Below, piece after piece: positions 11,123 through 49,893 of a stretch of 64,000 bases of DNA (position 1 is its first letter; the number at the start of each line of letters is the position of its first letter). Source of the DNA: Escherichia phage P-GXEC-L2P5. The translations under genes and the position numbers were made by a program. Under the pieces are notes generated by a model, which saw only the letters and a list, made by a program, of their open reading frames with translations, searched no databases and was not told where the DNA came from. The stretch lies in sequence record PQ843332.1; one strand, written 5' to 3'.

Positions 11123-12901
11123 ATGGCAGCGGGTACGCTATCCGTAACGAACAATAGCAAGGCTGTAGTAGGGGTCGGCACAACGTTTACCGCGTTTAAA
11201 GCGGGCGACTTCTTAACGCTGGTGGTAGGACAAGTCCCATACACCGTGGCAATCGCGTCCATTGAAAGCGCAACCGCGCTCACGCTGGTACTGCCGTTCG
11301 ACGGCCCAACGGCAACCGGCCTTGCGTGGGATGGCGTTAAGCGCGATACCATGTCGCTGGCAACGATGGGCGTTACCGTACAGGCCCAAAAAGCATTGCG
11401 CTTGATGATTGCAGATGAAAACAACTGGCGTGCAATCTTCGGCGATGCTGAAGAAATCACAGTCACGCTCCCGAACGGGCAAGTTATGCAGGGTATGTCG
11501 TGGGGCTACCTGTCGTCTTTGCTGAAGGAAGTAGACCCCGTTGAGATGCGCAACCTGCAACAACAAGCCGCCGCATCGGAAGCAGCCGCGCAAGGATTCC
11601 GTAACGAGGCGGAAGGCTTCAAGAACGACGCCAACACCATCAAGACGCAGACCAGCCAACTTAAGGCAGATACGCAGGCTATCAAGGACCAAACGAATCA
11701 GATCAAGACTGACACTGGCGTTATTCGTGATGAAGCCAATACCGCGAAGGAGGACGCGCAATCTGCCCGCACTGCCGCGCAAGGATTTCGCAATGAGGCT
11801 GAACAATTCGCTAATAGTGTTAACCCGGAAAACCTACTTGCGAAGGCCAACAACTTAAGTGATGTTGCGGATGTGGCTGTGGCGCGCGAAAACATTGGCG
11901 TAGACCGCCTAACGCAAAACATAACCAGCGGCGAAACACAAATCAGGACTGCGGCGAAGAATAAATGGATCTTCGTTAAGGAAAATGGCGACTGGGGCGG
12001 GTGGGATAATGCCAACAATAAAGCCATGCCGCTGCCGATTGCATTCGGTGGTACGGGGCGCGGCGATAACGTCGCCGAGTTCCGCCAATTCAAATCAAAC
12101 GGCGACACCCAAGATGGGTTAATCATTACGCAGAACGGGTCTGGATTTGGTGGTGTATGCTGGGGGGATTCCGCCAATAAAGTACGCTGGCGCATGGGGA
12201 TTAACGACGCCGCGGGTAATTTTAAGTTGCACTCATATGACGCGTCGGGCGCGTACCGCGATACCTTTATGGAGATCTCTGGATCGGGGATAAGCGGCAT
12301 GGTGTGTCATCGAGATATCATGGTCCGCCCAACAGAGACAGTTCCAGTGTTGTCTTTCGTCCTAAACAACGGAAAAGCTACCGTCCCGGCTGGTAACGTC
12401 CGCACGATGTGGGATACGGTTAACATCAATAGTAATATAATCTATAAATATTTTGAGAAGGGAGACGGCACTGGCTTCACAGTCAACTGGCCCTCATCTG
12501 GTGGTGTTATTGCCCTCCAGGGTACATCAGGAAGGGACTTTAAGAAAGATATTACCGACGCGGACGTTACAGAAGCGGTTGCACGCATTGAACAAATGCG
12601 CATGGTGCGCTACGTGTATAAGGACGATGTGCAGGAGCGCGTCCGCTTCGGCATCATTGCCGAGGAAGCAGAAGAGATTGCGCCTCAATACATCAAACAC
12701 CGTGAGGAGACGTACGATGTGGAGGTGGACCCCGAGACTAACGCCATCGTCGGGGGTAAGACGCGCGACCGTCCGTCGGTAGACGTTAACCCTATCGTGA
12801 TGGACTTGATGGGGTGCGCACAATATGCGATCGCTGAGTGTAAACGCCTGGCGGCGGAAGTGGAGGATTTGAAAGCCGAGATCGCGGCGTTGAAGAAATA
12901 A
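11123..12901 (+). CDS. tail fibre protein with C-terminal intramolecular chaperone (peptidase S74-like) domain
   Basis: Intact 592 aa ORF; coiled repeat region; C-terminal ...RFGIIAEEAEEIAPQYIK...DLKAEIAALKK resembles the auto-cleaving chaperone domain of endosialidase and L-shaped tail fibres. Confidence 0.7.
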   Translation: MAAGTLSVTNNSKAVVGVGTTFTAFKAGDFLTLVVGQVPYTVAIASIESATALTLVLPFDGPTATGLAWDGVKRDTMSLATMGVTVQAQKALRLMIADENNWRAIFGDAEEITVTLPNGQVMQGMSWGYLSSLLKEVDPVEMRNLQQQAAASEAAAQGFRNEAEGFKNDANTIKTQTSQLKADTQAIKDQTNQIKTDTGVIRDEANTAKEDAQSARTAAQGFRNEAEQFANSVNPENLLAKANNLSDVADVAVARENIGVDRLTQNITSGETQIRTAAKNKWIFVKENGDWGGWDNANNKAMPLPIAFGGTGRGDNVAEFRQFKSNGDTQDGLIITQNGSGFGGVCWGDSANKVRWRMGINDAAGNFKLHSYDASGAYRDTFMEISGSGISGMVCHRDIMVRPTETVPVLSFVLNNGKATVPAGNVRTMWDTVNINSNIIYKYFEKGDGTGFTVNWPSSGGVIALQGTSGRDFKKDITDADVTEAVARIEQMRMVRYVYKDDVQERVRFGIIAEEAEEIAPQYIKHREETYDVEVDPETNAIVGGKTRDRPSVDVNPIVMDLMGCAQYAIAECKRLAAEVEDLKAEIAALKK

Positions 12902-28065: not shown

Positions 28066-28516
28066 GTGTCGACCATTAACTTCGTCGGTGGCCTTAACAT
28101 AGTGCCAGGTTACGCGTTCTCCCTTTCGGGTAGTGGACCTGGTTATATAATCACGGTTGGGAATCCTGACACTTCGATCCGGCCCCTGCGTTGCCCCTCT
28201 CCAGTTTGCGTCCTGCATCCTGTCGACGAGGTGAATATTAGATTGGTTGCAGAAGGGAGTCAACAACTAATTTCAAAAAAAAAGCGCCGAAGCAAAATGC
28301 GACGGCGCTAACCAATAAGAGACAATGAGACGGGAGTATTATTACACGCGTGCGCGCCCGTTTCAATATTCCAAAGGAGTTGACACCACCAATAAGAGAC
28401 AATGAGACGGGAGTATTATTACACGCGTGCGCGCCCGTTTCAATATCCCAAAGGAGTTGACACCCTGCGGTTTTAGGTGTAGTTTCATTGGTCATTAACC
28501 AACCGGAGACAGAATA
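28066..28516. promoter_or_regulatory. divergent intergenic control region between minus-strand replication operon and plus-strand regulator/primase operon
   Basis: About 450 bp without a convincing ORF; TTGACA (28453-28458), 17-bp spacer, TAGTTT upstream of ATG 28517; AGATTGGTTGCA at 28240-28251; minus-strand hairpin plus T9 at about 28272-28305; internal 77-bp duplication. Confidence 0.5.
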
Positions 28517-28856: not shown

Positions 28857-31352
28857 ATGAGCTTAATTAAATTCGCTGTAACACGACCCGCTAAAAAAGG
28901 CGAAAAAGCCAGGGCGGAAAACTTCCAGATGACCACCGATGAATTTTTCGAATTTATCAATGATGCGAAAGAAATCGCGAAAAAGCCAGGGCGGAAAACT
29001 TCCAGATGACCACCGATGAATTTTTCGAATTTATCAATGACGCGAAAGAAATATCATCGGTGCATATCAACAAGACCGAGGATAAAGCGGAGTATGCGCG
29101 CCGCAAGCGTAAGGCCGATGGCATCGTAGCGTATACCAGTGACGGCTTACGCCGCAAGACCAGCGCGGTGGACCGCTCGATCCTGTTCTTTGATATTGAC
29201 CGCACCGACACTCGCACCTTACGCCGCTGCCGTAAGGCGTTCATTGACGCGGGTCTGGAACACGTATTCCACACAACCACCGGCGACCGCCACCCGCTTA
29301 AAGGCGGCACGCGTTGCGCTCGCTTCCTGGTACTCACTGATAAGCCGGTCCCGGCTGAAGACCTGGGCCGTGTCCAGTATGCGCTATTACATCAACTTGG
29401 TCTGTCGGATGTGGACTTCGACGATTGCACGAAAGACACAAACCGCCTGATGTACCTGCCGCACCAGCAATCGGTTATTAAGTGCCACTACGGCAAACGT
29501 GCCCGCGTCCGTCGTCTGCTTCGCCTGGCGGATACGCTTGGCGTGGAGAAGGAAGAAGTACGCCGCGAGCTTACCCAGGGCGACGACGCAGTGGCGGACG
29601 GGATTCTGGACTGGTGCTTCCAGGCAGGATTCGAGGAGTTATCTTCCGGTCGCGGTTATGAAGTGCCGTGCCCGAACGAACATCTGCACAGCGGCGAAGG
29701 GTCGACGGCTATCATGGTCAAGGATGGCGAGATCCGTTTCAAGTGTATGCACACCGGCAACGAGTGTTGCTCTGAGCTGAACAGACACCAGCACCTGGCG
29801 CTACGTCTTATCGGGATACCGGACCACCTGAACGTCGAGCCGCACAACATGTCACGTAAGCAAATCGCCGCCATCCTCCCAGGGCTGGACGACGAGGAAG
29901 TCGAATCCTTATATGAACATATTGTTGATGCGGTTGGCGACGGCGAAGAATACGGCGTGTGCACCGATGCGGATCTGGATAACGAGCCGGTCGCACTGTT
30001 GTTGATGCAGTTGGCGACGGCGAAGAATACGGCGTGTGCACCGATGCGGATCTGGATAACGAGCCGGTCGCACTATTCAGTAAGCACGACCCGATCATCG
30101 AAGGCCTGGTCAACTTCAAATCGACCTGGTACATGGCTGGCGAGTCGAACATCGGTAAATCGTTCTACGTGCTGGGCCAAATGGGCGCGGTTGCCGCGGG
30201 GATTCCGTTCGGCGGTGCGAAGGTCGTCCAGTCTCATTGCTTCTATTTCGACGCGGAAGGTGGCGAAGCCTCCAACCAGCGTAAGGAAGCATTGCAGATC
30301 AAATATGAGCACGACCTGGACAAGCTGCACATTATTGACCTGCAATCACGCGGCTGGGATATCACCAGCAAATCAGGCTTGCGTGAAGTTATCAGCTTCA
30401 TCAACCGCACCGCTAACGGCGAGCCGGTTGGCCTGGTGGCGTTCGACTCACTCAACCAGACTGTTGCGCTGCGGTCCGCCGATGCAAAACCGTTCGACGA
30501 GAACAACGCCAGCGATATGGGCGAAGTGGTCAAAGCGCTGAAGGCCATTGCGGAAAATACAGGCGGCAGTGCGGGCGTCATCCACCACCCGGCGAAAGGT
30601 GCAAACGGCCGCAGATCTCCCCGTGGGTCCGGCGCGCTGCATGGTGCTGTCGATTCTGCGTTCTTCCTGGAGCAACCGGACGACAACCAGCCAGGTCAAT
30701 TGAACCTGTATCACGAAAAGGCACGTAACGGCATCAAGCAAGCGCCGCGCGGCTTCGTCCTGCTCAAGTGCAAGGTTAAGGTGGATCTCCGCAAGTCCGA
30801 AGCGTTCGAAGCCCACCAGTCCACCAGCACCGGGCCAGACTTCGGCGATGTGGTTGCCGGTTGGGACGTCAAACCAATTGCGTCCACCCCGCGCGACGAG
30901 ACTCTATACCTCGTACCGGTAGCCCTGGCACCGTTCGCGATAGAACAGGCGAAGGCGGCGGGCAAAGCCGCAGTTAAGGAAGAGAACACCGCCGGTCCGC
31001 GCAACGAAAAAGAGAAAGTGCTTTATGCGGCCCTGGAAAAACTGATGGCAGATAACCCTGACCATACTGGATTCAGTAAATCGGCAATTGTACGCCAGGC
31101 GGGACTCGCTAAGGGTGGCACTTCGACGAAGGCAATAGACGATATGGTCGAGCGCGGCGTGATTGGTTTCTATACAGATCCGCACACCGGGGCCATATAT
31201 GGGTCGTCGAATTTAGTCATCAAATCTGATATCCCCTGATTGGTTTCTATACAGACCCGCACACCGGGGCCATATATGGGTCGTCGAATTTAGTCATCAA
31301 ATCGGAGATCCCCATAACGCTTTCGGCGACCGATGACGACCTGAAAGACTAA
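28857..31352 (+). CDS. primase-helicase: primase-polymerase-like N domain, zinc-binding region, RecA-like C domain (frame broken by duplications near 28910-29050, 29940-30070 and 31170-31290)
   Basis: ILFFDIDR and VFHTTTGDRH primase-like motifs; Cys/His cluster; Walker A GESNIGKS and Walker B VAFDSLN. Confidence 0.7.
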
Positions 31353-31610
31353 ATCCTATTTTGAGTGTTTTTAGCTGGTCGCATTGGTTGCCGTGCAGTA
31401 TAAATATAGTGAATAGTTATGCAATAAAACTGCATAAAGTAAGCGGGACAAAAAGCGGGACAAACTTGGGGCGGGACAAAGCGGGACAGCACCCCCGTCC
31501 CGCCCCGGATGACGCGGCCTGGAGAGGAGCGGGACAGGCGGGACAACTCCCAGTCTTTCAGACTAGACGGGGGTCAGCGGCCCCCCTCGTCTGAGACTGC
31601 ATAAAATCCG
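31353..31610. repeat. non-coding repeat module R2, paralogue of R1
   Basis: aagcgggacaaaaagcgggacaaacttggggcgggacaaagcgggacagcacccccgtcccgcc is nearly identical to R1 226-290; same hairpin at about 31553-31607. Confidence 0.7.
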
Positions 31611-31753
31611 GGATTGCAAAATACACGGCAGCACATTGGAAATCGCGGTCGTCGATGAACTGGGCAACCAATGCGAGTTGCAGAATGTGGTGTGAAAAAT
31701 GCAGTTTGCAGTCACAGCTGATAGCGATCAACTTTTTCATGCGCATGATTAAT

Positions 31754-31794
31754 ATTGGTTGCATTCATGCCAGCACCCTGCTAGATTGGTTGCA
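31754..31794 (+). promoter_or_regulatory. two copies of ATTGGTTGCA upstream of gene 31816
   Basis: ATTGGTTGCA at 31754-31763 and AGATTGGTTGCACACCAACA at 31783-31802; identical extended 17-mer upstream of minus-strand gene start 43131. Confidence 0.45.
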
Positions 31795-31815
31795 CACCAA
31801 CATGAGGGCTGAACA

Positions 31816-32142
31816 ATGAAAGCGATTATCTGGAATTACGCAATGGCTATGGCGAAGGCACAAGAAGCGGCGGAGTTCGCCGGGGAGGGGGCGGAAGCAG
31901 TAGAGAGACTATCGGCAGCGTGGTCCGTTGTTCGCGTCACGCAGCAGGCCATCGCCTGTATGCTTGAGCGCCGCTTCGACACGATGGCGGAGATCCAGCC
32001 GTTGGCGAACGCTATCCAGGACTACGCGCTTGCATTTGCCCGTGAACGCCTGGCGTATCGCTTCGGGATCGGAGAGACGGCAGTGACAAACGTTGCCCGG
32101 ATTAAAGCCCAGCGTGAGCTATTCGCCCAGCTTGCGAAATAA
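31816..32142 (+). CDS. hypothetical protein (early region)
   Basis: 108 aa intact ORF directly downstream of motif pair. Confidence 0.4.
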   Translation: MKAIIWNYAMAMAKAQEAAEFAGEGAEAVERLSAAWSVVRVTQQAIACMLERRFDTMAEIQPLANAIQDYALAFARERLAYRFGIGETAVTNVARIKAQRELFAQLAK

Positions 32143-32151
32143 GAGGCCAAA

Positions 32152-32421
32152 ATGACCCGTAGACGCGCAAAACAGCTTTCGTGGCATATCCCCCTGCATT
32201 GCATACGAATATGGGCTAAGAATGCGAATGCGGGGGACTCTGTGTACTGGTGCTATCGCGACGACGTTAAGCCGTTGACGCAGACTCGCTACTTGCACCA
32301 GTTCGCCGCGCAACATGATTTCTATGTGCGGACCTCCTTGCAACCAATGGGGATCCGTATTACATTACGCCGGAAGCCCGCAGTCGAGCGGGTAGGCAAA
32401 CACTGGAGACTGAGCAAATGA
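32152..32421 (+). CDS. hypothetical protein
   Basis: 89 aa intact ORF, tightly spaced. Confidence 0.35.
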   Translation: MTRRRAKQLSWHIPLHCIRIWAKNANAGDSVYWCYRDDVKPLTQTRYLHQFAAQHDFYVRTSLQPMGIRITLRRKPAVERVGKHWRLSK

Positions 32422-32960
32422 AATTACTATTCCGCCGAAAATCAGATGGCCGCATTCTTAAGCCAATACAGACCCTTGACACCCATGTGCGACTTCACCA
32501 CGCCGCAAGCGATCGTGTCTGGTGGGCGAATAAGGCAAAGCTGCCGGAGAAATACGAAATCCTCACGCATGATATTGAGCGCGGCGATGTGCTGCGTGAT
32601 ATTCGCGACGGGCAATTGTGGGTCGTTGAGCACACCAGCCAGCACGGCTTGCGTATGCAAACCCGCAAGGGCGGAGTAGTGGGTAACATACAGAGGGTTA
32701 TGACGTACTTCGGGCTAATCCACTACGAGCGCGTGGGGCGCAAATACTGCCTGCGCAACCGCCAGCCTCATGAGCGCGCAACCTACGACTCCCACCAGGT
32801 GCAAGCGAAGATGGGCCGCGCCGTACACCAAATCGTCAATCGCTTTGATGCCGTGACGAACGCACAACGCCATGCGCAGGAATACGGTGTTGGATTCATC
32901 CAGGTGGAACGAGACGGCAGCATGAAAGCCATCGACCCGCGCTCGGTGATTCTGAAATGA
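32418..32960 (+). CDS. hypothetical protein
   Basis: 180 aa intact ORF; ATGA overlap with upstream gene. Confidence 0.4.
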   Translation: MKLLFRRKSDGRILKPIQTLDTHVRLHHAASDRVWWANKAKLPEKYEILTHDIERGDVLRDIRDGQLWVVEHTSQHGLRMQTRKGGVVGNIQRVMTYFGLIHYERVGRKYCLRNRQPHERATYDSHQVQAKMGRAVHQIVNRFDAVTNAQRHAQEYGVGFIQVERDGSMKAIDPRSVILK

Positions 32961-33167
32961 GTGCGACGATCCGTGATATGCTTCAGCACAACCGCTTTGA
33001 GATAGGCGGTCGGGTGTTTCGCAATTACTTCGTGGCGCGTGCATGGGCGCGCCATATTGGCAAACCGGAAGGGGCAATTCGATGCTATACGTCTTCGCGG
33101 TAGTATGTGGCGGTAGTCTGGCGGCCCTGGTGCTGTTGGCGTCGGTTATTAGTCTGGTTAAATACCT

Positions 33168-33467
33168 ATGGGGCAGATTATGATTCATGATGTGATTTAT
33201 TGGTTTGGTATGGCCAGCATGTTATGCCTGGTTACGGGAGTGCTGGGCGCAATATGGGTATTCCTGGTATGGCCTGCGGTGGAAGCTGCCAGCATTACCC
33301 GGATGACATTCGAGATCTACAAGCGCCGTGGAATAACGGAGCACCCGACCAGGCTTCGGATGTGGTGGCTGTGGTATCGGGATATGATAGGCGGTCGAAC
33401 ATTCGAAGCCGTCCGCTCATCCGGGTGGGAGTGGAAAGGCGTCGGCAAGTTGTCCGTTTTCGATTAA
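33168..33467 (+). CDS. membrane protein, hypothetical (C-terminal region duplicated near 33420-33560)
   Basis: Hydrophobic N-terminal segment MASMLCLVTGVLGAIWVFLVW. Confidence 0.35.
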   Translation: MGQIMIHDVIYWFGMASMLCLVTGVLGAIWVFLVWPAVEAASITRMTFEIYKRRGITEHPTRLRMWWLWYRDMIGGRTFEAVRSSGWEWKGVGKLSVFD

Positions 33468-33566
33468 TTATGCAAGCGTGATATAGTCCCAGTGAGCTCG
33501 GGTGGGAGTGGAAAGGCGTCGGCAAGTGGTCCGTTTTCGATTAATTATGCAAGCGTGATATAGTCC

Positions 33567-33597
33567 CAGTGAGCTAAAACTTACTGGGACTTTTTTA
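33567..33597 (+). terminator. rho-independent terminator (agtcccagt...actgggact + tttttt)
   Basis: 9-bp perfect stem plus T-run immediately before the holin-like start. Confidence 0.6.
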
Positions 33598-33887
33598 TGG
33601 ATAAGCTAAACGAGTGGCTATTCGCCCTGGCATGTCTGGCGGGTGGCTTCGTAGGCGCACGCATTCATGGTGAGGCTACGAAGGGGCCGCTAAACTTCGT
33701 TTTGTATGTTGTAGTTGGCTTCCTGTGTGCCATATTTGGCGCACCGGCTATTGCCGAGTGGGCTGGTTTGTCGGGTGAGCGCACTGTCGCCGGTTTGGGC
33801 TTCGTAACTGCGATCTTCTGGATGCCAATCGCCGACCGGATCAGGGAGACTATTGCGTCGTTCCGACTTCCGGGGGGCGCAAAATGA
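33597..33887 (+). CDS. holin-like membrane protein
   Basis: 96 aa with three hydrophobic segments; immediately upstream of second membrane protein and lysozyme. Confidence 0.5.
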   Translation: MDKLNEWLFALACLAGGFVGARIHGEATKGPLNFVLYVVVGFLCAIFGAPAIAEWAGLSGERTVAGLGFVTAIFWMPIADRIRETIASFRLPGGAK

Positions 33888-34129
33888 TTATCTCCGTCCT
33901 GTTGTTTGTTATCATCGGGGCTTCGTCCCTGTTTAACGTGTATGCGCCGTCCGTCCGGGATGGCATTTTCGGTCGGGTGCTGTATCTGTTAACGGCAATG
34001 GTCTGTATTATCGGATTGTTGCAAACAGGAGACGTATCGGATACCACCTGGACCGCGTTAATCTGGCTGTTTGCATTGCGCACCCTGCGTAATGCTGTTT
34101 TAAATGGGGTAAAACATGCGATTCAGTGA
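33884..34129 (+). CDS. membrane protein, holin/antiholin candidate
   Basis: 81 aa, 2-3 hydrophobic segments; stop overlaps endolysin start. Confidence 0.4.
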   Translation: MIISVLLFVIIGASSLFNVYAPSVRDGIFGRVLYLLTAMVCIIGLLQTGDVSDTTWTALIWLFALRTLRNAVLNGVKHAIQ

Positions 34130-34192
34130 TAACGGTCTTCTGGCTGTTTGCATTGCGCACCCTGCGTAATGCTGTTTTGAATGGGGTAAAAC

Positions 34193-34838
34193 ATGCGATT
34201 CAGTGATAACGGTCTACGATTTACGGCAGCCTGGGAGGCTTTCAGCCCGGTGCCGTATTTCGCGACCAAGAAAGAGCAGGCCCGCGGCCTGTACACCTGG
34301 GGCTATGGTCACAGGCTTTCAGCCCGGTGCCGTATTTCGCGACCAAGAAAGAGCAGGCCCGCGGCCTGTACACCTGGGGTTATGGTCATACCGGCACTAA
34401 TCCGCCTCGAAGCATTACCCGCGAGGAAGCGCTGGCACTGCTCAAGCGCGATGTGGCGTATGCTGAGGACTGGGTTAACAAATACGCACATCCGAGCATT
34501 AACCAGGCGCAATTCGACGCGCTGGTGGACCTGGTAATCAACGCCGGTCCGGGTCCGATCGTACCGGATGACGTCGCGAATGATTTCGATGATGCGGTGT
34601 GGTGGACCTGGTAATCAACGCCGGTCCTGGTCCGATCGTACCGGATGACGTCGCGAATGATTTCGATGATGCGGTACGGTTGGGCGACTGGGCGAAGGTC
34701 CGTGCTACGCTGCCGCAGTTCCGCAAGCAAGGCGGCGAAGTGCTTAAGGGTCTGGTACGCCGTGCAATCGGCAGACAGGCGTTGTTTGATGGTAAGCAGT
34801 GGGACGTTGCCGAACGAATCGGTCGTAACGCTGCATAA
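34193..34838 (+). CDS. endolysin, lysozyme-like (frame broken by duplications near 34270-34360 and 34540-34640; start duplicated at 34112 and 34193)
   Basis: WEAFSPVPYFATKKEQARGLYTWGYGHTG resembles the lysozyme E...Y...G-x-GHT signature. Confidence 0.65.
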
Positions 34839-34854
34839 TACGAGGTAACACAGT

Positions 34855-35022
34855 ATGTTAAAAAGTATTCTTGATCATAATGCGGACGCGCTTGCTGCAC
34901 TGGCTAAAACCGAAGATCCGGGCGCTCGCGCTATCATCGCGGACTCTATAAACCACGCTGGGGTCTTCGATGCGAAGCTGCCTAGCCCACCACCGCAGGA
35001 GGAATCTGGTCCTGCAGCGTAA
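34855..35022 (+). CDS. hypothetical small protein
   Basis: 55 aa ORF with GAGGT RBS, followed by a duplication and terminator. Confidence 0.3.
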   Translation: MLKSILDHNADALAALAKTEDPGARAIIADSINHAGVFDAKLPSPPPQEESGPAA

Positions 35023-35105
35023 ACAATCAAGCCCGGGGGGTCTTCGATGCGAAGCTGCCAAGCCCACCACCGCAGGAGGAATCTGGTCCTGCAGCGTAAA
35101 CAATC

Positions 35106-35133
35106 AAGCCCGGAATTAACCGGGCTTTTTATT
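35106..35133 (+). terminator. rho-independent terminator (aagcccgg-aattaa-ccgggctt + tttta)
   Basis: Perfect 8-bp stem plus T-run. Confidence 0.65.
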
Positions 35134-35336: not shown

Positions 35337-36556
35337 ATGCACCCGCAAACTAAAATTACCGATGAGCAATTGATCGCAGAAATTCAGGAAGGGACTACAG
35401 TTAAAGAGATTGCGAAGAAGTACGGCATCGCACTTCGAAATGTCTATATGCGCAAAGCCCGCCTGTCTAAAAAGGGGATTGGTCACGGCAATGATGCAGT
35501 GATCCGTAAGCGCGTTGCCGATGGTTTTGGTGTTAAGCGCGTATCGGCCCTGGTACGCGGCAATGGCGAAGAGGTCATGTCGTGGGTCATCACTGAGCAG
35601 GACAAAGAGCGCCAACTCGAAGCCATGCGCGCTGTTGCAATGGCGAAGAGGTCATGTCGTGGGTCATCACTGAGCAGGACAAGGAGCGCCAACTCGAAGC
35701 CATGCGCGCTGTTGTCGAGGGTATGAACAGCGAAATCACACCGGCAGCGCCCGTAAACGCCACGCCAGTCCCGATTCAGGCGCTCGACTTGCTCAACCTG
35801 TACACAGTGTCCGACTTCCACCTGGGTATGCTGGCGTGGGGCGAGGAGACTGGCGAAGACTGGGATATGGCGATTGCTGAAGACCTGTTCTACCGCTGGT
35901 TTGTCGAAGCCTTCGCCCGCGCACCGGACGCAGGAACTGCCGTTATCAATATCCTCGGGGATATGGCCCACTTTGATAGCCTTGATGCCGTCACACCGGC
36001 AAGCGGTCACGTACTGGACGCCGACACACGATACCAGAAGTTGGTCCGCTATATGATTCGCATGGTGCGCAACGTGGTTGACCTGGCGCTGCAAAAACAC
36101 CACAAAGTAAAACTGCTAATCGTCCAGGGTAATCATGACGAGTCGGGCATGATTTGGCTTGCTGAGATGTTCAATACCCTGTATGAGAACGAGCCGCGCG
36201 TCGATGTGGACACGTCCCCGGACGTCTACAAAATGGTGCAGCACGGTAAGACCACGCTATTTTTCCACCACGGGCACAAAGCGCGATTCGATGTTATCGA
36301 GCAGGTTATGATCGCTAAATTCAGACAGGCGTTCGGGGCGAGCGAATACAGCTACGCGCACGTAGGCCATTTGCACCACCAGAAGATTGTTGAATCCCGC
36401 AACATGATTGTCGAACAGCACAGGACGCTCGCAGCGAAAGACGCCTACGCCAGTCGTGGCGGCTGGATGAGCGGTCGCAGCGCAAACGTCATCACCTATA
36501 GCGCCAACTACGGAGAAGTAGCGCGCTTAACCATTAGCCCGGAAATGTTGAAGTAA
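35337..36556 (+). CDS. metallophosphoesterase (calcineurin-like) with N-terminal HTH domain (frame broken by duplication near 35560-35710)
   Basis: N-terminal TVKEIAKKYGIALRNVYMRKARL; phosphoesterase motifs ILGDMAHFDS, VQGNHDE, FFHHGHK, HVGHLHH. Confidence 0.55.
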
Positions 36557-36570
36557 CGGCGACCCGTAAC

Positions 36571-36603
36571 CAGCCCAGCCTGCCGATTTGGTGGGCTTTT
36601 TTG
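36571..36603 (+). terminator. rho-independent terminator (cagcccagc...gtgggct + tttttt)
   Basis: Stem-loop plus T6 after the phosphoesterase gene. Confidence 0.5.
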
Positions 36604-36605
36604 TG

Positions 36606-36620
36606 CCTGTTATAATCCCC
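36606..36620 (+). promoter_or_regulatory. extended -10 promoter element TGT-TATAAT upstream of the terminase operon (duplicated near 36690)
   Basis: Consensus TATAAT with upstream TG read directly; no good -35. Confidence 0.4.
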
Positions 36621-36763
36621 GTTAGATGGCAGGGCCGTCTCCTATGTTGCCGATGGCTGCCGATTTGGTGGGCTTTTTTGTGCCTGTTATAATCCCCCTT
36701 AGATGGCAGGGCCGTCTCCTATGTTGCCGATGGTCGGCGCATATGAACAAAAGGGCATATATC

Positions 36764-38788: not shown

Positions 38789-40691
38789 ATGACCGTTAAC
38801 GTTGACAACCAGCACCCGCTCTATGCGCGCATAGCGCCAGAGTGGAAAATGATCCGTGACTGCGTAGCAGGGGAGCGCGCCGTGAAGGCGTGCGGGCCAT
38901 TGTACCTGCCACACCCCGCAAGCGGGGACACCACCGACCCGAAATCACGGGCACGCTATAAGGCATATAAGCAACGCGCTGTCTTCCTGAACGCCACCGC
39001 CCGCACACTGAATGCGCTGTTAGGTGTCGCCTTCGCCAAACCGGTGAGTATGGACCTTTCCGGGGCAATGGCTGACCTGATTGATGACGTAGACGGCAGC
39101 GGGATGCCACTGGCGCAACTACTGCGCGGCGCTATGTCGGAAGTGCTGCAATCAGGCCGTGCCGGTTTTATGGTGGACTACGACCGCCAGGCGCATTTTG
39201 ACGAACTGGGTAACGTAGTGCCGCAGACCGCCGCTGAAATGGCGGCACACCGCCCGCTTATCCGCCTGTATACGGCTGAACAGATCATCAACTGGCGGCG
39301 CAGACCGCCGCTGAAATGGCAGCACACCGCCCGCTTATCCGCCTGTATACGGCTGAACAGATCATCAACTGGCGGCAGACCCACGGGGTAGACACGCTAA
39401 TCGTGCTGAAGGAGACGGACGAAATCAGCACCGAAGACCCGGACGACTTCGCAAACCACGAAGTTACGATCTGGACCGAGTGCTGAAGGAGACGGACGAA
39501 ATCAGCACCGAAGACCCGGACGACTTCGCAAACCACGAAGTAACGATCTGGACCGAGCTTCGCATGATTGCAGGTGCGGCACATGCCCGCCGCTGGTTTT
39601 ACAACGCGGACACGTCCGAGGTGCAAATGGACTTGCCGCGGGGATTCACCCGCACCGATCTTGTACCGCTGGTGGATGCCTCCGGTAATGCGCTTACTCA
39701 ACTGCCATTTTGCTGGTGTGGTGCGGTGGACAACAACGCGACACCGGACGCCGCACCGCTGGCGGATATTGCGTCCATCAACATTAAGCACTACAACGCC
39801 GAGTGGACAACAACGCGACGCCGGACGCCGCACCGCTGGCGGATATTGCGTCCATCAACATTAAGCACTACAACGCCGAAGCAGACGTCGCCGAGATTGC
39901 GCACATTGTGGGCCAACCTACACTCATTGCGACCGGTCTGACCCAATCATGGGCCGATAAAAACCTGAAGGGAGGCATCGCGCTCGGTGCAACTAAGGGC
40001 GTTATCTTGGGCCAGAACATGGACGCTAAACTGCTTCAAGCTGAGGAGAGAAACCTGTCAGTTGCGCTGTGTGAGCGACGCGAATTGCAAATGGCTAAAC
40101 TGGGCGCGGCCCTGGTCGAGAAGGGGGAAACCTGTCAGTTGCGCTGTGTGAGCGACGCGAGTTGCAAATGGCTAAACTGGGCGCGGCCCTGGTCGAGAAG
40201 GGGACCGCACCTAAGACGGCAACTGAAGCGGCCTACGATGCGCAGACTGATAACAGTATCCTGTCACTGATTGCCGGTAACGTTGAGAAGGCTTTCAACC
40301 GTGCGCTGCAGATCGTCAAGCTGTTCACGGGGGACACCGCAGATCAACGTGTAACGCTGAATAAGTTCTACACCGAGATCACGGTGGATGCACAGCTTAT
40401 GACCGCAATGATGGCGGGTGTGCAGACCGGTACGGTCCGTCTGGCGGACTTTATCAAGTGGATGATGCACAGCTTATGACCGCGATGATGGCGGGTGTGC
40501 AGACCGGTACGGTCCGTCTGGCGGACTTTATCAAGTGGATGATGGCCCAGGGCGTTATTGATGACTCGCAAACCGTCGAGCAGGTGGAAGACGAACTGCG
40601 AAATCAGAATCCATTGCCTCAAATGTCCCCGGATGCGGTAGAATCTACCGAAGAAGACCAGGACAAGGTAGCGGACAATGGCGAAGACAAT
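38789..40691 (+). CDS. portal protein (frame broken by five duplications between about 39260 and 40500)
   Basis: About 560 aa after removing duplicates; position directly after terminase large subunit; acidic C-terminus. Confidence 0.55.
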
Positions 40692-42012
40692 TAATCAATA
40701 TATGGCGGATCGAATGATCCGCCGTCACATCTTCACCCAGCGCCTTAGCAATGACCAGGCGCGAAGGGTGCTGTCCATGTGGGAGAAGTTCCGGCCCACA
40801 TTACTGGGAAAGCTGACCGAGTTGCTTGATGGCAAATCGTCAATGAATAACAGGGCACTTTCCACCCTGCTAACGCAAATCGACAAGACCGTTAAATCAG
40901 AATTGCGCACCGAGTTTAAGGCGTTGGCTGAAAGCCTTCAGGAGTTCGCCGACACGGAGGCTGATTATCTCACCGACACATTAACGGCAGCGATCCAGCC
41001 GGTGGTGAAAGCCTTCAGGAGTTTGCCGACACGGAGGCTGATTATCTCACCGACACATTAACGGCAGCGATCCAGCCGGTGGTCGCTGTACCTGCGGTCG
41101 AGGTGGTTGGCGTAGTGACCGGTGCGCAGATCGCAGCGACGGCAATGAAAAACCCGTTTCAGGGCAATACCCTGATGCAATGGCCCGATTCACTTTCAGA
41201 ATGGACCAGGACGCAGATCGGCAATCAGGTGCGCGCGGGATTCATCCAGGGTAAGCCGACTTTGGAAATTATAGCGGACGTGAGGCGCGCGCTCGGCGGT
41301 CGTAGTGCGCAAGCTCTCTCAAGCGTTGTTAAGTCCGCAGTCAACCACTATGCGGCGACCGCCCGCGAACTAATGGTAAAAGCAAATGACGATATTCTCG
41401 AAGGTCGCCAACAGCAGTCAACCACTATGCGGCGACCGCCCGCGAACTAATGGTAAAAGCAAATGACGATATTCTCGAAGGTCGCCAATGGTTATCTACA
41501 TTGGACACGCATACTTCTCCCATGTGCCAGCTACGCGATCGCCTGTTTTATCCGGTTGATGTTACTCCCGACACCAAAGGAAAGCGCGGCGGGAAAATGG
41601 TGGCTGGGTCACAATATGGCGCTGGTCCGGGCAAGTTGCATTATTGCTGCCGGTCTACGGAGACGTGGAAGGTTAAAGGCATGGAAGATTGGCCCAGTGG
41701 TAAGCGGGCAAGTTGCATTATTGTTGCCGGTCTACGGAGACGTGGAAGGTTAAAGGCATGGAAGATTGGCCCAGTGGTAAGCGTCCGGCACTGAAGGCTG
41801 ACGCTGGTCGATTGCTGAGTGAGCAGGTCGACGCGCAGACTGATTTCTTCTCATGGGTGCAGCGCCAGCCGCGCCATATCCTGGAAGAATTATACGGAGT
41901 GCAACGCGCCGACCAGATTATGCGCGGCGTGAAAGTGCCGAAGATGTTCACCGATTCAGGCGAACTAATGACTATCGCACAGCTTAAAAACCGGGGGTTA
42001 TGGCGTGATTAA
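40678..42012 (+). CDS. head morphogenesis protein, Mu F / SPP1 gp7-like (frame broken by duplications near 40960-41080, 41340-41460 and 41640-41760)
   Basis: WLSTLDTHTSPMCQLRDRLFY signature region; position after portal. Confidence 0.6.
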
Positions 42013-49432: not shown

Positions 49433-49893
49433 GGAGCGGGACAGGCGGGACGTCCCGTTTTGTCCCGCCACCACTAAACCGCATATATACTCACTTTCAT
49501 TGCATAAATTAAAAGCGGGACAGGGGTGCTGTCCCGCTTTGTCCCGCCCCCAAAATGTGAATATCTATTCGATTTTCGTGCATAAAACAAACGGGACAAA
49601 AAGCGGGACAGAATTGGGCGGGACAAAGCGGGACAGCACCCCTGTCCCCGCCAGTGCTGCCGCGGGTTTTAGCCGATCGGGACAGGCGGGACAAAGCCCA
49701 GTCTTTCAGACTAGACGGGGGGTCTGTCACCCCCCTCGTCTGAGACTGAATAAGGTTTGTTTTAAATTCGCTGATACAATGACCGACGGCAACTGCATAA
49801 AAAGGGCCCCCCTCGTCTGAGACTGAATAAGGTTTGTTTTAAATTCGCTGATACAATGACCGACGGCAACTGCATAAAAAGGGGGACTGCATA
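49433..49893. repeat. non-coding repeat module R3, second-copy counterpart of R1
   Basis: Same GCGGGACA arrays, inverted pair GCGGGACAGGGGTGCTGTCCCGC, hairpin and TGCATAAA boxes; ORFs called here are spurious. Confidence 0.7.

Follow-up and report, generated by a model that had tools for sequence, protein, structure and literature searches.

The region at 31816-33467 of the window (the 64,000-nucleotide stretch of Escherichia phage P-GXEC-L2P5 DNA analysed here, sequence record PQ843332.1) is a real and conserved operon of six small function-unknown genes, A to F, located between the replication and lysis genes: a helicase-primase of the replication module precedes the block and two holins of the lysis cassette come after it. 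Nearly all EP23/HK578-like coliphages (genus Dhillonvirus) possess this block, and it is already known from public genomes, where EP23 and more than 150 others carry it as "hypothetical proteins". The best overall explanation, to which we assign a probability of about one half, is that A to F are genus-specific, separately transcribed, small non-structural genes in a nin-like position of an EP23-like Dhillonvirus.

Identity and assembly of the locus

A megablast search with positions 31300-34200 as the query returned 158 phage records, almost all of them Escherichia or Shigella Dhillonviruses, and the best match was Shigella phage EP23 at 99.4% identity. Positions 31237-33498 formed a single unbroken alignment to EP23 38970-41231 (99.7% identity), and the genes EP23p48-p51 (NC_016566) are the same as those of the window block, with order and spacing alike. 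The window C protein was 100% identical to EP23p50 (P0001), and the other block proteins were 98-100% identical to those of EP23. Orthologues were present in ~155 Dhillonvirus genomes, including HK578, the TheodorHerzl/Bas14 group, SM_S22 and SECphi18. Four block genes appear in the EP23 annotation, all as hypothetical proteins: A, C, F and a version of B that is 30 residues too short (EP23p49, the last 59 aa only). D and E have no entry there. Both D and E are annotated in TheodorHerzl (E as gp58) and in SM_S22, in which A-F correspond to CDS0058-0064.

When the whole window was aligned to EP23, it covered more than one genome length of Dhillonvirus sequence, joined as a strain mosaic, and the window is a metagenome-style assembly of a Dhillonvirus. 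A tandem repeat of 76-77 nt was found at every assembly joint, with copies differing by 1-3 mismatches, and we take these 77-nt tandem duplications to be artefacts of the assembly. The block has one on each side: the duplication at 31160-31313 falsely truncates the helicase-primase ORF at 31239, and the first copy of the duplication at 33422-33575 contains the 3' end of F. EP23 does not have the duplications that flank the window copy, and from the start of A to the stop codon of F the sequence is free of them.

Gene content and coding status

All six reading frames lie on the plus strand. Gene A (31816-32142) encodes 108 aa and corresponds to EP23p48 (phrog_9839); gene B (32152-32421) encodes an 89-aa protein with a pI of 11.0 (phrog_12533); gene C (32418-32960) encodes 180 aa with a pI of 10.2 (EP23p50, phrog_10243); gene D (32957-33103) encodes 48 aa with a pI of 11.2 (phrog_13628); and gene F (33168-33467) encodes 99 aa (EP23p51, phrog_2531). 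Between D and F lies ORF E (33082-33183), a candidate gene for a 33-aa protein with a single transmembrane segment. The first-pass annotation had listed ORFs of 108, 89 and 180 aa, a very small one at 32957-33103 and a membrane protein, which are A, B, C, D and F, and its description of tight packing was borne out: A and B are separated by a 9-nt gap with a Shine-Dalgarno sequence, and all other junctions overlap, with ATGA overlaps at B/C and C/D, a 22-nt overlap between D and E and a 16-nt overlap between E and F. The second of the two very small ORFs that it listed does exist, but at 33083-33184 it had been placed one base out of frame.

One could regard the small ORFs as annotation noise, that is, as frames left open by chance in a spacer that is non-coding or regulatory. 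This would fit ORF E, which is found only in a subset of phages and without informative substitutions, and the adjacent minus-strand ORF EP23p47 (31558-31764), for which we obtained a dN/dS of 0.86. It does not fit the other five frames. The reading frames of A, B, C, D and F were conserved, with full-length homologues in all loci; the five genes were syntenic and in the same order in 15 of 15 related loci, and they occurred in 151-156 of ~158 Dhillonvirus records, which marks them as core genes, unlike variable counter-defence cargo. In tblastn searches the number of phage records with a match was 156 for A, 155 for C and 151 for D, and almost all of these phages bear Escherichia, Shigella or Dhillonvirus names. 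The dN/dS values calculated by the Nei-Gojobori method were 0.36 (A), 0.19 (B), 0.41 (C), 0.07 (D) and 0.18 (F), while the flanking helicase-primase and holins gave 0.07-0.15. Since A, B, C, D and F are under purifying selection (0.07-0.41), they are real genes. The start/stop overlaps within the block, the Shine-Dalgarno sequences read for A and B, and the confident folding of B and C in AF2 also speak against chance frames. We consider annotation noise highly improbable for the small ORFs taken together and effectively refuted for A-D and F, which are genuine genes, co-oriented and translationally coupled. A plus-strand ORF at 31655-31819, upstream of A, was dropped from the list, as relatives have an in-frame stop in it.

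Scans of the block ORFs against Pfam and NCBIfam gave nothing significant, and every PHROG match fell into a family of "unknown function". Zero matches were obtained when A-F and p47 were compared with the PADLOC defence models at E values up to 1, and PDB searches with single sequences of A and C and with profiles of A, B and F found nothing. The genes had been called uncharacterised at first pass, and these searches bear that description out; confident homology to structural or metabolic proteins, the outcome that had been named as speaking against the first reading, did not appear. No virion structural family was matched by the block genes. In a lysate of the related phage EE09, 24 proteins were detected, including 16 of the 17 annotated structural proteins, and the block genes were not among them, with the C homologue EE09_46 the only one mapped by name (PMC10673088). 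Together these results supported the description of the block as uncharacterised and non-structural.

Promoter, terminator and repeated motifs

Reading the sequence upstream of A, we found a promoter-like region on the plus strand (31759-31800) with a putative -35 element TTGCAT (31759-31764), a 17-nt spacer and a putative -10 element TAGATT (31782-31787), which in most relatives is TATATT. A GAGGG Shine-Dalgarno sequence precedes A at 31804-31808. A consensus promoter scanner made no call at this site because the -35 agrees at only 3 of 6 positions. The region was nevertheless conserved across 12 related loci, and it is overlapped by two ATTGGTTGC motifs (31754-31762 and 31785-31793) and by the palindrome TTGGTTGCACACCAA (31786-31800). 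The same motif architecture recurs at the RusA promoter and at other intergenic sites, and at both the A and RusA promoters TTGGTTGCACACCAA directly follows the -10.

At the other end of the block, an intrinsic terminator on the plus strand (33562-33596) directly abuts the ATG of the holin gene (33597); it has a perfect stem of 12 bp, a loop of 6 nt and a U6 tract. Its folding energy was -21.5 kcal/mol (z = -6.5). All 12 loci compared retain the terminator, and the most divergent of them (L016) has a compensatory C:G insertion. An extended -10-like sequence, TGATATAGT, precedes the terminator. An Rfam scan of the region gave only a sub-threshold match, on the terminator hairpin, and a tRNA scan found none. 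With a conserved promoter-like site before A and a strong terminator after F, A-F appear to form a single operon that is kept apart from the lysis genes. The "early" timing given to the block at first pass is plausible, judging by the sigma-70-like promoter sequence, the separate unit and the terminator ahead of the lysis genes.

The R2 module of the first-pass annotation proved to be a real array of six GCGGGACA repeats at 31443-31545, ~350 bp upstream of A, followed by a conserved hairpin at 31552-31598 (z = -4.1). The array was conserved in all loci examined, and the tail region contains a homologue of it. The motif pair mentioned in the same annotation is probably ATTGGTTGC. In EP23 this motif occurs at 27 sites when up to one mismatch is allowed, compared with 12.7 expected, and 0 of 100 shuffled sequences reached 27. 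Exact matches make up 13 of these 27 sites, which are mostly intergenic, often paired and mostly oriented with the genes.

Gene A and a putative helix-turn-helix

Gene A consists of a conserved N-terminus, a hypervariable, indel-bearing middle (residues 18-61) and a near-invariant C-terminus. The pN/pS ratio was 0.74 for the middle and 0.27-0.32 for the ends (0.27 for the C-terminus). Residues 76-95, RERLAYRFGIGETAVTNVAR, carry the expected residue at every diagnostic position of the 20-residue helix-turn-helix (HTH) signature, which calls for a hydrophobic residue at position 4, Ala at 5, a hydrophobic residue at 8, Gly at 9, Ile or Val at 10 and 15, and a hydrophobic residue at 18. This segment was nearly invariant in 11 homologues, with the pattern LAxxFGIxxxxVxxxV. 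The Pfam model HTH_Tnp_4 matched 9 of the 11 homologues below threshold (E = 0.038-0.075; 13 bits against a cut-off of 27), and a Cro model matched 2 of the 11, also below its family threshold. The first-pass annotation had found no assignable motif in any of the block genes. As far as significant family matches are concerned this holds for all six, but A does bear a textbook helix-turn-helix signature.

The HTH signature is shared by A and small HTH phage regulators of the Cro-like and HTH_Tnp-like kinds. A differs from them in that its N-terminal two-thirds is hypervariable and has no counterpart, and all matches to such regulators were sub-threshold. A may be a DNA-binding regulator whose invariant recognition module would probably read the paired ATTGGTTGC sites or the GCGGGACA arrays. 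Candidate target motifs are found at its own promoter and in at least 8 other intergenic regions. The presence of a genus-specific motif system beside a genus-specific HTH protein suggests that either A or EP23p45 is the reader; EP23p45, which is also an HTH protein, has an equal claim to this role. The possibility that A and EP23p45 are paralogues was ruled out by comparison.

Genes B, C and D

The B family comprised 20 clusters in a database of 5.8 billion proteins, and the lowest identity to the window copy in the alignment was 62%. The AF2 model of B (pLDDT 77.9) has a helix-strand-helix arrangement followed by four strands, from which B is predicted to be a conserved basic alpha/beta protein. 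A weak match of B to the lambda Int arm domain (Pfam Arm-DNA-bind_1) was not reproduced in homologues and was rejected; the B model does not have the three-stranded sheet and helix that form the fold of the lambda integrase arm-type DNA-binding domain.

For C, the AF2 model predicts an all-beta region at residues 1-112 (pLDDT ~90), followed at low confidence by a long helix and a hairpin. We read residues 1-112 of this model as two SH3/Tudor-like barrels. A variable linker follows residue 112 and leads to a C-terminal helix and hairpin module with the pattern YGVGFIxVxxDGSMxxIDP. In the looser form YGxGFxxVxxDGxMxxIDP, this module also occurs alone or with other N-termini (P0220, P0231); the stand-alone copy, P0231, lies on a 1.6-kb contig with uninformative neighbours. 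The second barrel has a 114-aa paralogue in one phage, and alleles of C are mosaics of exchangeable segments that range from 35 to 100% identity between phages. A profile search with C (HMMER, 1.84 billion representatives) gave 21 matches, all to its own family or to fragments, and a BFVD structure search returned its own family only. One source labels a C homologue (P0127) as an HNH endonuclease; this label was rejected, as Pfam gave it no support.

The modelled barrels of C have the Tudor/SH3-like fold found in the CarD/TRCF-RID and UvrD/PcrA domains, and with low Z scores they resemble the Tudor domains by which CarD, UvrD/PcrA and Mfd bind RNA polymerase, a likeness at the level of the fold. 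Sequence identity to the CarD/TRCF RID and UvrD/PcrA Tudor domains was 2-13%, and no Pfam signal accompanied it. Nor was the structural match specific to the CarD/UvrD Tudor domains, for dozens of unrelated SH3-like barrels scored equally, including ribosomal L19, NdhS, PsaE, TraI and KOW.

D was the most conserved protein of the block, with identities of at least ~87% in all 151 phage records. The strongly basic proteins B, C and D probably associate with nucleic acids or a polymerase and would act inside the cell in early or middle infection, with C using its two predicted barrels as a binding platform. Basic charge by itself is weak evidence of nucleic-acid binding.

ORF E and gene F

ORF E owes its origin to an insertion of 98 nt, which took over the start codon that F ancestrally used and provided F with another. 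Some Dhillonviruses have E, but most lack it. Only 2 pairs were informative for its dN/dS, and scans of E against Pfam, NCBIfam and PHROG found no family match. F is the membrane protein that had been noticed in the block at first pass: it has one hydrophobic stretch, at residues 4-43, which forms an N-terminal membrane anchor and is followed by a W/R-rich domain. F matched phrog_2531 and phrog_31127, both of unknown function. The first of these families was found in 481 phage records, including Salmonella Jerseyviruses, and the F family also occurs in other phage genera, in lambdoid-type contigs and in E. coli prophages. In Jerseyviruses the F homologue has NinH-like genes around it and is located downstream of the lysozyme gene, ~1.3 kb away, with the terminase genes on its other side. 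In lambdoid-type contigs (L069, L077) it directly follows a DnaB-like helicase, and in E. coli prophages (L051) it adjoins an Rv2179c-like exonuclease. The common factor in these contexts is an early or nin-like position rather than adjacency to holins. E and F would be small inner-membrane proteins that act at the membrane independently of holins, and superinfection exclusion or membrane conditioning would be their most plausible role.

Alternative roles for the block

If E and F, and perhaps D, were lysis accessories, their role would be that of an antiholin, of a regulator of lysis timing or of a partner in membrane disruption. E and F are both small membrane proteins, and the end of F lies 130 bp from the holin start in the window, of which ~52 bp is real, as in EP23, and the rest is a 77-nt duplication. 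The ~1.3 kb between the Jerseyvirus F homologue and the lysozyme gene could be counted here as well, and the lysis genes of Dhillonviruses are already scattered, with spanins adjoining the head genes. Several observations nevertheless run counter to this role. The strong, conserved terminator stands between F and the holins; F matched no lysis family, be it of holins, antiholins or spanins, whereas both genes downstream of it match holin PHROGs (2359 and 2508); the F homologues of lambdoid-type contigs and prophages lie beside replication and exonuclease genes with no lysis genes nearby; and most Dhillonviruses do without E. The terminator and the contexts of F in other phages make an accessory role in lysis less likely, and we judge it distinctly unlikely.

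The first-pass annotation had assigned the block to host takeover or anti-defence, that is, to proteins that would inhibit or act as decoys for host immunity or machinery and would be made before lysis. Position was its sole argument, and the assignment is speculation. The genes are indeed small orphans confined to the genus, for which no homology to structural or metabolic proteins was found, and the evolution of A and C is fast and mosaic, pN/pS reaching 0.74-0.77 in some segments. The junctions around A and C are insertion hot spots for tiny genes, including one for an acidic protein of 44-50 aa, and the low-Z likeness of the C barrels to the Tudor domains of CarD, UvrD/PcrA and Mfd could also be counted in favour of this role. 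On the other hand, A, B, C, D and F belong to the core of the genus, selection on B, D and F is strongly purifying, and neither PADLOC nor named families were matched; nothing in the analysis connected the block with a defence system. The Dhillonvirus anti-defence and trigger genes identified by experiment appear to be located elsewhere. Anti-Tmn is ORF35 of SM_S22 and is missing from SM_A8, and nmad5 has the capsid gene in its neighbourhood (PMC11846954). Ksap1, a protein of 74 aa, is encoded between methyltransferase and phosphatase genes in the opposite-strand replication block (10.1101/2024.01.31.578182). Going by gene numbering, ORF35 would lie in the opposite-strand replication block too. 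A-F did not coincide with the anti-Tmn, Ksap1 or nmad5 loci when judged by position and presence pattern, as distinct from sequence comparison with anti-Tmn; A, B, C, D and F were found in all relatives, unlike anti-Tmn. Within the literature on RAZR triggers, the Mokosh trigger and the BASEL phages, none concerned the block. We therefore regard anti-defence or host takeover as an unlikely role for the block as a whole. The fast, mosaic evolution of A and C fits host interaction without proving it and suggests a variable partner. A related reading, which we hold to be doubtful, takes A and C as diversifying host-contact factors and the block as a genus-specific host-takeover, immune-evasion or immune-trigger module. 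In such a module the twin barrels of C would attach to host machinery, RNA polymerase for example, or to an immune sensor, the hypervariable segment of A and the swapping of A and C alleles would record an arms race, and the neighbouring insertion hot spots would take up extra small effectors.

Discussion

The reading that we prefer, of small, separately transcribed, non-structural genes in a nin-like position, draws on a comparison with the lambdoid nin region, a set of small delayed-early genes between the replication and the late/lysis genes. The block likewise follows a replicative helicase and precedes lysis genes, and like the nin region it has many tiny, overlapping and mosaic genes. 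It differs in that no sequence homology was found between A-D and any Nin protein, and no Q-type antiterminator was identified; moreover, the block is carried by a virulent phage and has a terminator of its own at the end.

As it stands, the block is ordinary and matters little: it consists of the usual orphan genes of phages, deposited in more than 150 genomes. Its value lies in a short, defined target list: one operon holds six genes, A and C among them evolving fast, and the genus is a common experimental subject (BASEL phages Bas14-18 and Bas83-85 and the SECphi phages) that can be rebuilt in vitro. As a probable regulator, A could explain the genus-wide system of ATTGGTTGC and GCGGGACA motifs. 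The F family, phrog_2531, is common to Salmonella Jerseyviruses, lambdoid phages and E. coli prophages, and establishing its function in one of them would annotate hundreds of genomes.

Composition of the window

Alignment to Shigella phage EP23 (NC_016566) showed that the window exceeds one 44-kb genome in length and is a mosaic of strains, its identity to EP23 ranging by segment from 82 to 100%. At every joint of this alignment, a 76-77-nt segment is present in tandem duplicate with 1-3 mismatches, as for example at 28311-28464, 28895-29048, 29922-30075, 31160-31313, 33422-33575, 34062-34215, 34236-34388, 34523-34676, 34960-35113, 35560-35713 and 36580-36733. These duplications, which interrupt helicase-primase, holin 2, endolysin and further ORFs, we read as assembly or concatenation artefacts.

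Sequence elements upstream of gene A

Gene A, the first of the six small genes (A to F) of the block, is preceded by a repeat and hairpin module at 31443-31598. It consists of six direct repeats of GCGGGACA at constant spacing, with an AT-rich stretch before the array and, 3' of it, a long conserved hairpin (31552-31598; dG -30.4 kcal/mol, z -4.1) in which the stem is kept and the loop is variable. Every Dhillonvirus locus has kept the array upstream of gene A. Further positions of the feature are ~71-400 and 49436-49690 in the window, and 12056-12317 and 39177-39330 in EP23. The tape-measure gene and the gene for its chaperone have a homologous module (~83-86% identical) between them. The GCGGGACA array looks like either a set of iterons, that is an origin, or a regulator-binding array.

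In and near the block, the motif ATTGGTTGC occurs at 31383-31391, 31754-31762 and 31785-31793, and on the minus strand at 31664-31672 and 32340-32348. EP23 carries 13 exact copies genome-wide; allowing up to one mismatch raises the count to 27, where 12.7 are expected. The majority of the copies are intergenic, and they often occur in pairs, in the same orientation as the genes. Directly 3' of the -10 element at both the predicted gene A and the RusA promoters is the palindrome TTGGTTGCACACCAA. The motif probably serves as an operator or promoter element specific to the genus.

Gene content and variation of the block

EP23p47, a 68-aa minus-strand ORF annotated in EP23 (window 31558-31764), shares sequence with both the conserved hairpin and the promoter region of gene A. 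The reading frame is open in all relatives, yet dN/dS is 0.86, and we consider it doubtful as a gene. Gene B is annotated in EP23 from an internal start, giving 59 aa. Since the 30 codons upstream (32152-32241) are conserved at the protein level in all relatives, and the upstream start has its own Shine-Dalgarno sequence, the product is likely the 89-aa form.

Comparison with related loci shows three sites at which tiny genes are repeatedly inserted (hot spots). Between the promoter and gene A, four loci (L002, L004, L010, L014) carry a 59-aa protein (phrog_3623). The B-C junction, minimal in the window and in EP23, holds an insert in L002, L008, L009, L012, L015 and L019, which encodes a protein of 44-50 aa (acidic, phrog_15977), 50 aa (basic) or 62 aa, or else a 114-aa paralogue of the second predicted barrel of C. 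At the D-F junction, a 98-nt insertion (window 33092-33189) is the source of ORF E.

In viral contigs of lambdoid type (L069, 3977-4270; L077, 3977-4576), a homologue of the membrane protein F (phrog_2531) directly follows a DnaB-like helicase; in E. coli prophages (L051, 4001-4312), F homologues adjoin an Rv2179c-like 3'-5' exonuclease. Of 5426 complete E. coli genomes, 24 cover at least 80% of the L051 prophage segment and 818 match at least part of it; the annotation is 'hypothetical' every time.

A terminator hairpin at the holin start

Downstream of the block, the extended -10-like sequence TGATATAGT stands directly upstream of a terminator hairpin (region 33545-33600). The holin ATG adjoins the U-tract of this hairpin, whose 3' arm covers the expected position of the holin ribosome-binding site. 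The arrangement may be a device that shuts off holin translation from read-through transcripts and releases it on those begun within the hairpin.
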